Positions 60,675 to 63,391 of a DNA stretch of 64,000 bases are shown piece after piece. The first letter of the stretch is position 1. Every line of letters begins with the position of its first letter. Source of the stretch: a virus; the IMG/VR virus record IMGVR_UViG_3300003323_001383, one strand, 5' to 3'. Under the pieces are notes generated by a model, which was given only the letters and a program-made list of their open reading frames with translations, searched no databases and was not told the origin of the DNA. A program made the position numbers and the translations under genes.

Positions 60675-60753
60675 GGGGCGTTGCGTCGGAACGCGAGGCC
60701 GCCTGTAAAGCGGTCGCCTCACGGCTAGCAGGGTTCGACTCCCTGGCGCCCCA
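60675..60753 (+). tRNA. tRNA-Tyr(GUA)-like with long variable arm and reduced D-arm, possibly a pseudo-tRNA
   Basis: Acceptor GGGGCGU/GCGCCCC, AC loop CUGUAAA, 14-nt variable arm, T-arm CAGGG-UUCGACU-CCCUG. Confidence 0.4.
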
Positions 60754-60835
60754 CCCGATCCCAGTACCGAAGGAAGCAGAAGATGACCAAGCTCAAAAAG
60801 ATCGCCCCCGCTGGCGGCGGGATCAAGGAAGGAGC

Positions 60836-60908
60836 GGACCTATAGCTCAATCGGCAGAGCAACTGGCTTTTAACCAGGAGGTTGCGGGATCGTTGCCCGC
60901 TGGGTCCA
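60836..60908 (+). tRNA. tRNA-Lys(UUU)
   Basis: D-arm GCUC-AAUCGGCA-GAGC; AC loop CUUUUAA. Confidence 0.65.
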
Positions 60909-60941
60909 CCGCCCGAGGAGTATCCTCACGGCGATTTGCGC

Positions 60942-61015
60942 GGACCTGTAACTCAGCTGGCCAGAGTAGCTGCCTCTTAAGCAGAAAGTCGTGGGTTCGA
61001 CCCCCACCAGGTCCA
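60942..61015 (+). tRNA. tRNA-Lys(CUU)
   Basis: Acceptor GGACCUG/CAGGUCC; AC loop CUCUUAA; T-loop UUCGACC. Confidence 0.65.
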
Positions 61016-61052
61016 CGAAAGACAAGGCACCATCTACTACGATATTCACCAT

Positions 61053-61123
61053 TCCGGGATCGTCTAGCGGCAGGACAGACGACTCTGACTCGTCCAACGG
61101 TGGTTCGAATCCATCTCCCGGAA
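61053..61123 (+). tRNA. tRNA-Gln(CUG)
   Basis: AC stem GACGA/UCGUC; loop CUCUGAC. Confidence 0.65.
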
Positions 61124-61319
61124 CTGCGCATGAGGGCCTCCGAGCTCTCCTGCTCTTTGACAACTCGACAGGACTCTGGATCCGGCACCGGTCGACGCCA
61201 TAGCGTCGGAGGCGCCGGGGCGACGGCAACCCGTAAAGGCGCGGGCTCTGCCCCGCCCCCGCGCGGCGCCCGATCCTCTCCTGCGCGCCCCGCCGACAGC
61301 GGCGGGAGCGCGGAAAGGC

Positions 61320-61364
61320 GGAGGCGGGCCGAAAAGACTTACGAGTCTTGGAGGCCCCGCCTCC
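61320..61364 (+). other. nested GC-rich hairpin between tRNA-Gln and tRNA-Asp
   Basis: 9-bp stem GGAGGCGGG/CCCGCCUCC enclosing inner 6-bp hairpin AAGACU-UACG-AGUCUU. Confidence 0.4.
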
Positions 61365-61370
61365 AAATCT

Positions 61371-61441
61371 GGTCTCGTAGTTCAATGGCAGAACGCGCCC
61401 CTGTCCAGGGCAAGACGAGGGTTCGATTCCCTTCGGGACCG
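61371..61441 (+). tRNA. tRNA-Asp(GUC)
   Basis: D-arm GUUC-AAUGGCA-GAAC; AC loop CUGUCCA; T-loop UUCGAUU. Confidence 0.6.
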
Positions 61442-61454
61442 CAGATTTCTCTAT

Positions 61455-61526
61455 TCCGTTCTAGCACAACGGCAGTGCGCTTGCCTGTTAAGCAAGATTA
61501 TCCTGGTTCGAATCCGGGGGACGGAA
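61455..61526 (+). tRNA. tRNA-Asn(GUU)
   Basis: AC stem CUUGC/GCAAG; loop CUGUUAA. Confidence 0.65.
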
Positions 61527-61527
61527 C

Positions 61528-61601
61528 CGCGGAGTGGAGCAGCCCGGTAGCTCGCGAGGCTCATAACCTCGAGGTCGCCTGTTCGAATCAGGCCTCCGCA
61601 T
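61528..61601 (+). tRNA. initiator tRNA-Met(CAU)
   Basis: Near-identical to E. coli tRNA-fMet, with C1:A72 mismatch and AC loop CUCAUAA. Confidence 0.75.
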
Positions 61602-61610
61602 CCAAGGGCC

Positions 61611-61823
61611 CTATAGCCTCGTGAGGAGACGGAAGGCGGCGACGAGCGCGAGGCCCACCAGGCCTCCGGCGAGCGCCCATCTCCAGGGCCACGAGACCCC
61701 CGGCTTCCTCGGGGCCGACCTTCGGACGTTCTCCTGAAGCTCCGCGACGTCCATCTCCATGAGGGAGCTCAGGGGCCTCGACCTCCGGGCGAGGTCCTGG
61801 AGCTTCGCCTGGTCGAACTTCAT
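61611..61823 (-). CDS. small C-terminally membrane-anchored protein (70 aa)
   Basis: C-terminal LAGGLVGLALVAAF. Confidence 0.4.
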   Translation of the reverse strand: MKFDQAKLQDLARRSRPLSSLMEMDVAELQENVRRSAPRKPGVSWPWRWALAGGLVGLALVAAFRLLTRL

Positions 61824-61895
61824 CGTCGCGCGGCTGTCTGTCTCCACGGGCCGGCCTACCGTCTCGGAGGGACGACCTACGCCGTACGATAGAGG

Positions 61896-62198
61896 ATGGA
61901 CTTCAAGGAGATGGCGGCGCGAATGCCCCTGCCCGCCGGCGAGGACGGGAACCTCCCGTCGGACCCGGAGGACCCCCACGTCTGGGCGACCTCCATGGAC
62001 CCGAGGGACGGGATGGTCTTCGTGAAGTGGGAATGCCGGAAGTGCGGGACCGCGATGGCCATCTCCTACAGCCAGGACGAGGTCCGGGGAGACGACATCT
62101 CAGTGCTGACGACGAGGATCAAGAGGTCCTTCGCGCGGGCCAGGGTCCATCCCCGGTGCTCGGAGGTGGCGCTGGTCCGCGAGGTCATGGAGTCATAG
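61896..62198 (+). CDS. small zinc-ribbon protein with ALVREVMES tail (VMES family)
   Basis: CRKCG...HPRC; stop is immediately followed by tRNA-Trp. Confidence 0.5.
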   Translation: MDFKEMAARMPLPAGEDGNLPSDPEDPHVWATSMDPRDGMVFVKWECRKCGTAMAISYSQDEVRGDDISVLTTRIKRSFARARVHPRCSEVALVREVMES

Positions 62199-62265
62199 GG
62201 GCGAGGCTGAGGTAGCCATGCGGATTCCAAATCCGCCGGACCGGGTCCGACTCCCGGCGCCCCTG
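62197..62265 (+). tRNA. tRNA-Trp(CCA) with shortened D-arm
   Basis: Acceptor AGGGGCG/CGCCCCU and G73 as in E. coli tRNA-Trp; AC loop UUCCAAA. Confidence 0.5.
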
Positions 62266-62269
62266 CCGT

Positions 62270-62551
62270 TCAGGCCATCTCCGCGAGCCTGTCGTCCATC
62301 TCGTCCACCTGGACGAGGACGGACTGGAGGGCGCGGCTGACGACGCCGGCCTGCTCCTGCATGAGCTCCACTATCGCCGGGTCCGTCCCGTCCGCCTCGA
62401 CGATGTCGACGTTCCCCTGGACAGCCTCGATGAAGGCGGAGAGGACGTCCGACAGCCTCTCGTGGAGGCCGATGATCTTCGTGAGCTCGGCCGTCGGCCC
62501 GTCGGAGGCGACGCGCAGGGCCATCTTCTCTATGTCCATTTTTCCGTCCAC
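62270..62551 (-). CDS. hypothetical acidic protein (93 aa)
   Basis: Balanced composition. Confidence 0.45.
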   Translation of the reverse strand: MDGKMDIEKMALRVASDGPTAELTKIIGLHERLSDVLSAFIEAVQGNVDIVEADGTDPAIVELMQEQAGVVSRALQSVLVQVDEMDDRLAEMA

Positions 62552-62581
62552 TTCTCCATGGCCCTCCTCGGTAGAAGAGGC

Positions 62582-63295
62582 CTACACCATCCCGAGGGCC
62601 GGGCCGAGCGACCGGTTGTACATCGTCCTCACCTGGGAGGCCGTGAGGGCCTTGTTGAAGACGATGGCGGAGGCCATCGCGCTCCCCTTGGTCAGGAAGT
62701 TGAATGGGGACACGCCGATGTCGGACCCGAGGTAGAGCTTGGAGCTCGTGCCGCCGTCCGGGGCCGTGATGCCGACCGAGGTGGCCCCGACCTGCCGCCC
62801 GTTGAGGTAGAAGGTCACCTGCCCGCCCCTTCGCGTGAACCCGTGCTGGCACGGGGTCTGGGTCGGGACCCCCTGGTTGACGTCGAAGTAGAGCTGGTCC
62901 GCCCCGCTCCCGGACTCGCTCAGATAGTTGATCGTGCTCGCGATACCGGTCAGGTACTGGACGTAGCAGGCGTTGTCCGCCTGGGTCTCCCCGTTGGCCG
63001 AGCAGGAGACCATGCACCGGGTCGAGCCCGCCTGGGCCACCATGATGCAGAGGAAGGTCATGTCGCCGACTATCTGGAGGTCGGCGTCCGTCGCGTTGCG
63101 GAAGACGGAGCTCGAGCCGTCGAAGAAGAAGCCGCGCATGCCGGGCAGGAGGTCGGTGTAGCGCTCCGTCCCCGCGGCCACCGTCAGGGGCCTCGACCCG
63201 AAGGTGCTCTCGAGCGTGGAGCCGAGCGTCCAGTGGGCGACCGGCCCGAAGATCTCGGGGTGATAGTTCGCGAGCCCGCGGGTTCCGTAGGACAT
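62582..63295 (-). CDS. concanavalin A-like lectin / LamG-domain protein (237 aa)
   Basis: SKLYLGSDIG...ASAIVFNKALTASQVRTMYN resembles the LamG motif; start chosen to avoid the tRNA. Confidence 0.55.
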   Translation of the reverse strand: MSYGTRGLANYHPEIFGPVAHWTLGSTLESTFGSRPLTVAAGTERYTDLLPGMRGFFFDGSSSVFRNATDADLQIVGDMTFLCIMVAQAGSTRCMVSCSANGETQADNACYVQYLTGIASTINYLSESGSGADQLYFDVNQGVPTQTPCQHGFTRRGGQVTFYLNGRQVGATSVGITAPDGGTSSKLYLGSDIGVSPFNFLTKGSAMASAIVFNKALTASQVRTMYNRSLGPALGMV

Positions 63296-63317
63296 CCGCG
63301 ACGCTACGGGATTAAAG

Positions 63318-63391
63318 GCCGGCGTAGCACTCGGGGAGTGCACCGCCTTCATAAGGCGGCGAGGTCGGTTCGAGTCCGACCGCCGGCACCA
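63318..63391 (+). tRNA. tRNA-Met(CAU) elongator type (or Ile-CAU), CCA encoded
   Basis: Acceptor GCCGGCG/CGCCGGC, AC loop UUCAUAA, T-loop UUCGAGU, genomic CCA. Confidence 0.75.

Follow-up and report, generated by a model that had tools for sequence, protein, structure and literature searches.

The window analysed here is a 64,000-nucleotide (nt) stretch of DNA from the IMG/VR virus record IMGVR_UViG_3300003323_001383. It carries an array of transfer RNA (tRNA) genes at positions 60675-63391 and, elsewhere, a set of genes connected with translation and tRNA maintenance. An original prediction, made from the sequence alone, had listed nine tRNAs in this array. ARAGORN recovers all nine with exactly the anticodons listed, and across the whole window it predicts 12 RNA genes: the nine array tRNAs (+), two tandem tRNA(UUA) genes (-) and one transfer-messenger RNA (tmRNA) gene (-). 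Seven of the nine array tRNAs and both UUA tRNAs also pass the Rfam model RF00005 (56-64 bits; gathering score 29 bits), so that neither predictor misses most of the array.

The tRNA array

The array opens with tRNA-Tyr(GUA) (60675..60755, +), a class II tRNA with a long variable arm, G1-C72, A73 and no encoded CCA. Its core is reduced to a 1-nt linker, a 4-bp D-stem, a 4-nt D-loop (CGGA) and a 6-bp anticodon stem, and in Rfam it is matched by the tRNA-Sec model only, at 33.8 bits and below the gathering score of 47. Then follow, on the same strand, tRNA-Lys(UUU) (60836..60910; Rfam 60.3 bits), tRNA-Lys(CUU) (60942..61016; 64.2 bits), tRNA-Gln(CUG) (61053..61124; 56.4 bits; U1-A72), tRNA-Asp(GUC) (61371..61442; 58 bits), tRNA-Asn(GUU) (61455..61528; 61.1 bits) and an initiator-type tRNA-Met(CAU) (61528..61604; 56.7 bits), which overlaps tRNA-Asn by 1 nt. 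Further on lie tRNA-Trp(CCA) (62197..62267, +) and a tRNA-Met(CAU) of elongator or Ile-lysidine type (63318..63391, +; 56.4 bits), the only array gene with an encoded CCA; the other eight lack it. The first base of tRNA-Trp is overlapped by the stop codon of a 100-amino-acid open reading frame (ORF; 61896..62198, +; codon-model call), which has no Pfam family and no assigned function. The gene for a 237-amino-acid LamG/concanavalin-like protein (62582..63295, -; Pfam Laminin_G_3) also lies inside the array.

The structural peculiarities that the original prediction had described are borne out. A non-standard 27:43 pair is present in three tRNAs (A.G in Lys-UUU, G.A in Lys-CUU and a mismatch in Asp), the D-arm is reduced in both the Tyr-like and the Trp tRNA, and the T-loop of tRNA-Lys(UUU) is AUCGUUG, with its 54:58 pair turned into A:U. 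T-loop positions U54-U55-C56-R57-A58 and the D-loop GG are standard in seven genes, and the deviations are A54/U58 in Lys-UUU, C55 in Trp and the D-loop CGGA in Tyr. In tRNA-Trp, which has a 3-bp D-stem and a 1-nt linker, the C at position 55 belongs to the T-loop UCCGACU, and the Rfam tRNA model gives no match even at E<=10. The Tyr and Trp tRNAs have nearly the same acceptor stem and T-arm (GGGGCG ... GGGT(T/C)CGACTCCC ... CGCCCC). A search with the T-arm/acceptor 22-mer that they share matched one other phage tRNA, an Ile; the tRNA-Ile(GAU) at L057:776-849, on an unrelated-looking 182-kb IMG/VR contig, has an identical 22-nt T-arm and 3' acceptor strand. A pattern search with the Tyr anticodon arm matched unrelated phage arrays.

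Array relatives and the host

The closest relatives were reached via exact-protein look-ups. The closest of them is the 88.5-kb NCBI metagenome contig JACCDR010361005.1 (locus L058), which encodes a PTH2-type peptidyl-tRNA hydrolase with 86% and a 237-amino-acid LamG protein with 74% identity to those of the window. Its tRNA genes stand in the order of the window (Tyr, Lys-UUU, Lys-CUU, Gln, Asp, Asn, initiator Met, Trp, the 237-amino-acid gene, Met), and beyond Met the array continues with Glu, Thr, Phe, three Leu, two Ile, two Pro, Ala, Val, His and another Met, giving 23 tRNAs for 17 amino acids within 11.5 kb. Homologues of the 237-amino-acid protein (P0016, 74% identity; P0017, 62%) lie between Trp and Met tRNAs in L058 and in L059, a short Logan contig that likewise has the segment Thr-Glu-Met-237aa-Trp, and the gene is a synteny anchor to these relatives. 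In L307, a 160-kb contig from the Joint Genome Institute (JGI), the array starts with Tyr, Lys-UUU, Lys-CUU, Gln, Asn, Thr, Glu and Phe. The continuation of the array is deduced from relatives alone, because the window's own contig extension was not matched: exact look-ups of three window proteins and of P0015 did not retrieve it, P0001 led only to contigs of 1.3 and 5.3 kb, and an exact 51-mer from the window end is absent from the JGI metagenome contigs. Judged by these relatives, the window end cuts the array, whose nine genes form the head of a much larger tRNA set, probably with at least 20 members. With the array cut in this way and a relative that covers 17 amino acids, the amino-acid set of the window carries no special meaning.

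The nine orthologous tRNA pairs of the window and L058 are 61-100% identical and include 32 two-sided stem changes with pairing kept, which argues that these are maintained genes and not chance cloverleaves. Compensatory and broken pairs number 6 and 0 in Lys-UUU, 7 and 0 in Lys-CUU, 3 and 1 in Asp, 6 and 4 in Asn, 2 and 0 in initiator Met, 4 and 2 in Met, 3 and 3 in Tyr, and 1 and 1 in Trp. When the Trp alignment with L058 was read by eye, four compensatory pairs were counted (three in the anticodon stem and one in the T-stem), and the comparison with L059 gave 3. The initiator Met is 94% identical to its L058 copy and its 2 compensatory changes fall in the T-stem, while the tRNA-Met at 63318..63391 shows 97% identity with its counterpart in L059 and 80% with that in L058. 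All 72 bases of tRNA-Gln are identical to L058:13957-14028, and the gene is 89% identical to the L307 copy; its full sequence has no exact match in GTDB species genomes.

The structurally unusual tRNAs are shared with the relatives as well. A Trp tRNA with a short D-arm occurs in three phages (window, L058 and L059), with compensatory changes in the anticodon and T stems; the orthologues in L058 and L059 have the normal UUCGAYU T-loop, and C55 is found in the window copy only. Orthologues of tRNA-Tyr head the arrays of L058 and L307. In all three phages this tRNA has the GUA anticodon, the long variable arm, G1-C72 and A73, features that fit a bacterial tRNA-Tyr, and the D-arm is different in each. 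Further unusual forms are seen among the relatives: tRNA-Asn has a long, class II-like variable arm in L058:13544-13626 and L307:18683-18764 (the window copy does not), and the tRNA-Ala(CGC) at L058:8501-8571 has the same reduced core as the window Tyr (1-nt linker, 4-bp D-stem, 4-nt D-loop, 6-bp anticodon stem).

Between tRNA-Gln and tRNA-Asp lies a conserved, structured spacer of 246 nt (61125..61370, +) that is 96% identical to L058, where tRNA-Gln and spacer together occupy 13711-14028 (-). It comprises a terminator-like hairpin (61132-61149, a match of the terminator scan) followed by CTCTTT, a TTGACA motif, a GC-rich folded core and a last hairpin directly before tRNA-Asp. The predicted fold has a minimum free energy of -139.8 kcal/mol (z = -5.5), and nearly all differences from L058 fall within the first ~30 nt. 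The identity of the spacer, and of tRNA-Gln beside it (72/72), contrasts with that of the flanking tRNAs (61-83%), PTH2 (86%) and the LamG protein (74%). Only the two ends of the spacer are conserved in L307. No match was found in Rfam, in GenBank phages or, with exact 21-mers, in IMG/VR, and the spacer shows no coding signal. It is a candidate for a new structured RNA or leader, or else for a recently exchanged segment.

The initiator tRNA gives a hint of the host. An initiator Met tRNA had been claimed for the array, and the gene at 61528-61604 indeed has the C1xA72 mismatch and the A11:U24 pair; in its anticodon stem, 29:41 is A:U and is followed by two G:C pairs, so that the three consecutive G:C pairs of bacterial initiator tRNAs are absent. 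Solitary cellular genes for initiator tRNA, most of them planctomycete, have this A29:U41 form too, which is therefore a lineage variant rather than a defect. The 28-nt anticodon arm has exact matches in more than 120 solitary cellular genes in metagenomes and in at least 120 GTDB genome contigs; among the matches listed, 102 of 120 carry a Planctomycetota label. The best full-length matches (68/73 bases) are planctomycete. Compared with the cellular bacterial initiator tRNAs of the A29:U41 type, the window copy has C1xA72, A11:U24 and the 28-nt anticodon arm in common with them, but its acceptor and T stems differ from those of every cellular copy retrieved, and it lies in a phage array, overlapping tRNA-Asn. 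Because this anticodon arm is typical of Planctomycetota, the host is probably a planctomycete, which we take as a hint and not as proof.

Translation genes, phage lineage and UUA tRNAs

A second group of genes connected with translation lies on the minus strand. The tmRNA gene (28973..29318, -; tag ANDNSIAAAA), found by ARAGORN, is a full-length match to Rfam RF00023 at 85.1 bits (gathering score 47); its tag frame ends in Ala-Ala, the tRNA-like domain is present, and the gene is kept at the same position in L055, L302 and L307. The two PTH2-type peptidyl-tRNA hydrolases of the original prediction both pass Pfam PF01981 (cut-off 23), at E 8.9e-26 and 90.8 bits for the first (25455..25844, -) and at E 2e-9 and 38.1 bits for the second (35480..35803, -). 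The first has the GK..AQ..H and D.GRT motifs, with both motifs (the second as D.G.T) invariant among it and 12 homologues, and matches the PDB entries 1q7s (human Bit1), 1wn2 and 2zv3; its motifs align to 1q7s. The second is a divergent PTH2-like protein, also present in L055, in which alignment to the first shows the Lys of the GK motif to be replaced (SPGSQAVQGMHA). Neither gene reaches the NCBIfam PTH2 equivalog cut-off of 126 (73.5 and 29 bits), and a PTH2 profile search of IMG/VR found only one distant locus. An RRM RNA-binding protein, likewise anticipated, is confirmed at 26390..26755 (-; Pfam RRM_1, E 1.9e-19). It has an Arg/Gly-rich tail and scores 81.5 bits with NCBIfam Rbp_regulator, under the cut-off of that model, and its gene is kept upstream of PTH2 in L055, L301, L304 and L307. 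The codon bias of this gene is weaker than that of its neighbours (GC content at third codon positions, GC3, 0.82), and the codon-model caller missed it; recent acquisition or a different expression level could account for the weak bias.

The gene at 24529..25458 (-), whose 309-amino-acid product had been described as an HD hydrolase, does encode an HD domain (Pfam HD, E 5e-5), but its identity is more specific than that label. The upstream gene is PTH2, whose stop codon it overlaps by 4 nt. The protein aligns to positions 214-444 of 466 of TIGR02692, the actinobacterial CCA nucleotidyltransferase (E 7.4e-26). A profile of 53 sequences of its family, across which the H, HD and D residues are invariant, matched in the PDB only the class II tRNA nucleotidyltransferases 3wfo-3wfs (3wfo residues 306-504, E 2.4e-35). 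The AlphaFold2 model (predicted local distance difference test score 95.6) gave 3wfo-3wfs as all of the top 16 Foldseek matches, with probability 1.0 and a template modelling score of ~0.5. By sequence and modelled fold, this is therefore the C-terminal part of a class II CCA-adding enzyme, consisting of a C-terminal helical region and an HD(IG) domain, rather than a generic hydrolase. It resembles class II CCA-adding enzymes (TIGR02692; 3wfo-3wfs) in sequence and fold over their C-terminal ~230-290 residues and in the H...HD...D metal-binding motif. It differs from them in lacking the N-terminal Pol-beta nucleotide-adding head (PF01743) that bears the catalytic carboxylates, and in being a standalone protein with a putative function only. 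Full-length homologues with PF01743 and PF12627 exist, at only 25-39% identity, and the protein belongs to a large family of standalone proteins of 250-315 amino acids.

A calcineurin-like metallophosphatase (34383..35123, -; Pfam Metallophos, E 1.8e-14) lies directly upstream of the UUA tRNAs. In NCBIfam it resembles ApaH (PRK00166, E 2.2e-23) and the Pnkp phosphatase domain (bacter_Pnkp, E 2.9e-18), both under the cut-offs. The order response regulator, tmRNA, HNH, RRM, ~160-amino-acid protein, PTH2 and HD is kept in five related contigs (L055, L301/L302, L303, L304 and L307), with protein identity down to 56-60%, and the HD protein, a metallophosphatase and PTH2 are found <=12 kb apart in a more distant phage-like contig too. 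Also kept beside this block in L055 and L307 is the gene for an 877-amino-acid protein (31343-33976, -) that matches the shoulder and the repeat domains of the major vault protein (Pfam E 2e-19 and 1e-8), which is unusual for a phage. PTH2, CCA-adding enzymes and RNA-repair genes have already been described in jumbo phages and read as serving ribosome rescue and tRNA repair (PMC7824862), and tmRNA and other translation genes in huge phages (PMC7162821). The original prediction had spoken of a translation-takeover toolkit of the jumbo-phage kind; the genes are present and conserved and the repertoire is known from such phages, while "takeover" is a matter of interpretation.

The rest of the window bears on the kind of element that carries these genes. 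It has 68% GC with GC3 near 95%, and a codon-model call gave 83 genes in the standard code, ending in TGA (48), TAG (27) and TAA (8). Genes for replication and DNA metabolism include a family A DNA polymerase, a DnaB helicase, a SNF2 helicase, a primase zinc finger, a dCTP deaminase and a Dam methylase; DnaJ, an AAA ATPase, two sigma-70-family factors, two receiver-domain proteins and a block of proteins of 980-1550 amino acids, one of them with a weak match to a phage tail family, are also encoded. Synteny with IMG/VR viral contigs of 130-436 kb is seen over the replication block and over the large-protein block, and the best GenBank phage match of the DNA polymerase is a 485-kb uncultured phage. 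On these grounds the window is a fragment of a phage from a huge-phage lineage. A megablast search of 60000-64000 against GenBank phages gave no match.

It is very unlikely, in our assessment, that the window instead represents a cellular genomic island or megaplasmid with a tRNA cluster. Host-like regulators are numerous (ECF-type sigma factors, receiver domains, DnaJ, RRM), standalone homologues of the HD protein are annotated in metagenome-assembled genomes of Myxococcota, and neither a capsid nor a terminase gene was recognised in the window. Against such an origin, every syntenic relative found is an IMG/VR viral contig, the 980-1550-amino-acid protein block with its weak phage tail match is kept in viral contigs, the polymerase points to the 485-kb phage, and gene density is high with many small ORFs of no known function.

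The regulators and chaperones form an unusually rich set: stand-alone receiver-domain proteins at 29332-29718 and 36738-37124, sigma-70-family factors at 35800-36276 (clearly of the extracytoplasmic function, or ECF, type) and 43019-43558 (region 2 only), and a full DnaJ and a second J-domain protein at 49761-50864 and 18940-19827. Gene order also varies in the lineage. In L010, an IMG/VR relative, the tail-like block (homologues of window 4103-17296) adjoins SNF2, and in L307 the tRNA array comes after DnaJ and the small-gene block; these orders point to a ~43 kb inversion (window ~17300-60500) in the window and JACCDR010361005.1, with the tRNA array at one of its breakpoints.

The two suppressor-type tRNAs of the original prediction are also present. 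They are tandem tRNA(UUA) genes of the ochre-suppressor type (34303-34376 then 34225-34299, both -), found by ARAGORN and well formed (Rfam 59 and 62.1 bits), and the pair starts 7 nt downstream of the metallophosphatase gene. One of them has an orthologue at the same place in a relative (L055:1213-1286), with compensatory changes. One copy has Lys-UUU as its nearest paralogue (72%), and the other is closest to His, Met and Glu (68-73%). A search of IMG/VR with the suppressor-tRNA pattern gave no match. No changed code goes with these tRNAs: no in-frame stop codon was found in any window gene examined, recoding of TAA, TAG or TGA was rejected by ORF analysis, and the genetic code of the window is standard.

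That TAA is nonetheless read as sense, in an alternative genetic code, is extremely improbable. The tandem, well-formed genes and the orthologue in a relative would suit it, as would an excess of genes that run on in frame to the next gene across a spacer of <=15 nt (3/8 TAA-terminated genes vs 2/75 others; Fisher p = 0.0055, tested post hoc). However, no long or conserved ORF is interrupted by an in-frame TAA, total called ORF length does not gain with TAA as sense (18,040 vs 18,614 amino acids in the standard code), TAA terminates 8 of 83 genes and is gained and lost freely between orthologues, and TAA recoding was found in none of 10,754 surveyed jumbo phage genomes (PMC13037316).

Three TAA-terminated in-frame pairs, all on the minus strand, were considered for read-through: 29734-29946/29332-29718, 35480-35803/35138-35470 and 58479-58619/58344-58475, with spacers of 15, 9 and 3 nt. 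Only the first, a 70-amino-acid protein followed by a receiver-domain protein, keeps the TAA and the frame in L055; its spacer uses the very rare TTA codon, and the arrangement may therefore be due to chance. A programmed read-through fusion of the PTH2-like protein with the 110-amino-acid protein that follows it was rejected, as L055 does not preserve the frame. In L058 the stop codon of the third pair's orthologue is TAG. An improbable but specific possibility is that the lineage keeps genuine ochre-suppressor tRNAs under the standard code for partial read-through of UAA, yielding C-terminally extended or fused proteins or disturbing host termination, with tmRNA, PTH2 and the HD protein handling the resulting stalled ribosomes and damaged tRNAs. 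The 70-amino-acid protein (29734-29946) running into the receiver-domain protein (29332-29718) is the clearest candidate for a read-through fusion. Like the suppressor tRNAs of code 15 and code 4-type phages (PMC13037316, PMC9523058), those of the window are phage tRNAs with a stop-codon anticodon; unlike them, they have the anticodon UUA (ochre) rather than CUA or UCA and accompany a standard code in every gene examined.

A probable general tRNA supply and its alternatives

The genes of the array and of the translation block are real and intact, and related phages have them in syntenic order, conserved with compensatory changes. The samples are from soil and rhizosphere, and genes identical to those of the window occur in the root metagenome SRR1924237 and the JGI soil sample 3300003321. 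We consider it probable that the array is the beginning of an extensive tRNA gene region, probably with at least 20 genes, in a high-GC phage that belongs to a huge-phage lineage, with a planctomycete as the probable host, and that the phage combines a general tRNA supply with a separate rescue and recycling block. The array would be transcribed in at least two units, because the terminator-like hairpin comes after tRNA-Gln, and host enzymes would process the transcripts; since eight of the nine genes have no encoded CCA, its addition after transcription would be needed. The tRNAs would mostly read the phage's own most-used codons, and the full set may keep phage translation supplied when the host tRNA supply drops or is attacked. 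In the accompanying block, tmRNA would free ribosomes stalled on broken mRNAs, PTH2 would release tRNAs from dropped-off peptidyl-tRNA, the head-less CCA-enzyme/HD protein would bind tRNA and probably clean damaged 3' ends by a phosphoesterase activity, and the RRM protein would bind RNA. Expression of the array and the toolkit, the aminoacylation identity of the tRNAs, the biochemical activities and the purpose of maintaining translation are what we infer from these genes and their conservation.

Several observations weigh against this explanation. Neither the Tyr nor the Trp tRNA passes the general tRNA covariance model, the window Trp has C at the nearly invariant position 55, and both tRNAs may be poorly functional. 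AAA, the cognate codon of tRNA-Lys(UUU), accounts for only 13 of 19,519 codons. No SmpB was found by Pfam among the ~60 window proteins scanned, a set that covers all but ~20 small ORFs, nor were an RNA ligase or a nucleotidyltransferase head among the proteins scanned, so that rescue and repair would depend on host partners. The source contig of the window is listed as 95,572 bp, and the figure of 130-436 kb belongs to relatives. A search of IMG/VR with the single SNF2 protein matched nothing, and an alignment-based search found 43 loci of more distant relatives. None of these 43 has a tRNA in the array-equivalent region, the 10 kb upstream of SNF2. A single tRNA occurs among them, for Arg in L023, and it lies ~9 kb downstream of SNF2. 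Where the array sits, and perhaps whether it is there at all, therefore varies.

Codon usage bears on whether the tRNAs are kept for codons or amino acids that the host pool serves poorly. The codons read by the window tRNAs (mostly AAG, GAC, AAC, TAC, CAG, ATG and TGG) make up ~23% of the codons of window genes, and five of them are the preferred codons within their families: AAG is 99% of Lys, GAC 98% of Asp, AAC 97% of Asn, CAG 97% of Gln and TAC 94% of Tyr. For DNA of 68% GC, other codon choices are odd (AGG 30% of Arg, ATA 13% of Ile, GGG 40% of Gly, CTC 62% of Leu); neither in the window nor in L058 was a tRNA-Arg(CCU) seen. The comparison with the presumed host that the original prediction had proposed was run against a proxy, namely high-GC genome loci carrying the same initiator arm and mostly labelled Planctomycetota. 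Lys (1.55x), Asn (1.42x), Tyr (1.24x) and Met (1.21x) are more frequent in the phage than in this proxy, which is not the host itself, ATA (5.2 vs 0.8 per 1000 codons) and AGG (23.4 vs 4.3) are far commoner, and L058 carries a tRNA-Ile(UAU) that reads ATA. However, Gln, Trp and Asp have tRNAs though they are not enriched, and most of the tRNAs serve codons ending in G or C, a preference to be expected of any host with 68% GC. The codons read by Lys(UUU) in the window and by Leu(CAA) in L058 are ~1% of their families, AGG is heavily used with no tRNA-Arg(CCU) seen, and the near-complete set of L058 (17 amino acids) looks like general supply rather than gap filling. We therefore hold compensation of codon or amino-acid usage to be rather unlikely as the explanation; a compensatory component is partly supported by the proxy comparison, and the near-complete set fits general supply better.

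A possible, though not a likely, explanation is counter-defence, in which the phage tRNAs replace those cut by anticodon nucleases or other tRNA-targeting defences, their odd structures aid escape, and damaged tRNAs are repaired or recycled by PTH2, the HD protein and the phosphatase. The tRNAs of the window (Tyr, Lys, Gln, Asp, Asn, initiator Met, Trp) overlap with known targets of anticodon nucleases such as PrrC, colicin E5, zymocin-type enzymes and VapC. In addition, the tRNAs diverge fast with their structure kept (61-83% identity, with compensation), the D-arm, T-loop or variable arm is unusual in several of them, and the HD protein, PTH2 and the metallophosphatase occur together in several phages. 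Phage PTH2 and CCA enzymes have been read in a repair context by PMC7824862, in whose reference list VapC cleavage of initiator tRNA appears. However, the target-like set is an artefact of the window cut, and the reading of the window's amino acids as a mirror of nuclease targets was dropped because the L058 array reaches 17 amino acids. An RNA ligase, a kinase and a nucleotidyltransferase were not found in the window, and no defence system is known for the host of this phage. Counter-defence is compatible with the general tRNA supply that we prefer.

To our knowledge, few phages of Planctomycetota are known. With the region read as general supply plus rescue and recycling, a high-GC soil lineage, probably on Planctomycetota, joins the phages with their own tRNA supply and ribosome-rescue genes. 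The conserved pair of PTH2 and the head-less CCA-enzyme/HD gene is open to biochemical testing as a tRNA-recycling unit, and the UUA tRNAs are a clear case of ochre-suppressor-type tRNAs maintained with no change of code. The points of interest are thus the HD partner of PTH2, the ochre-type tRNAs without recoding, the odd yet conserved tRNAs and the probable planctomycete host; the general picture of jumbo-phage translation toolkits is unchanged.

The array and toolkit are a further example of a known jumbo-phage phenomenon, one in which tRNA numbers can reach the 56 of Xanthomonas phage XacN1 (PMC5852040). Unlike the jumbo and huge phage toolkits already described (PMC7162821, PMC7824862), the present one is known from a fragment only, its CCA-related protein has no nucleotidyltransferase head, and the genes recognised in the window include no aminoacyl-tRNA synthetase, translation factor, ribosomal protein or SmpB. 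It shares with them clustered tRNA genes (dozens), a tmRNA, a large-genome lineage, an archaeo-eukaryotic-type PTH2 in place of the bacterial Pth1 and a protein related to CCA-adding enzymes, here in a high-GC lineage from soil that probably lives on Planctomycetota.

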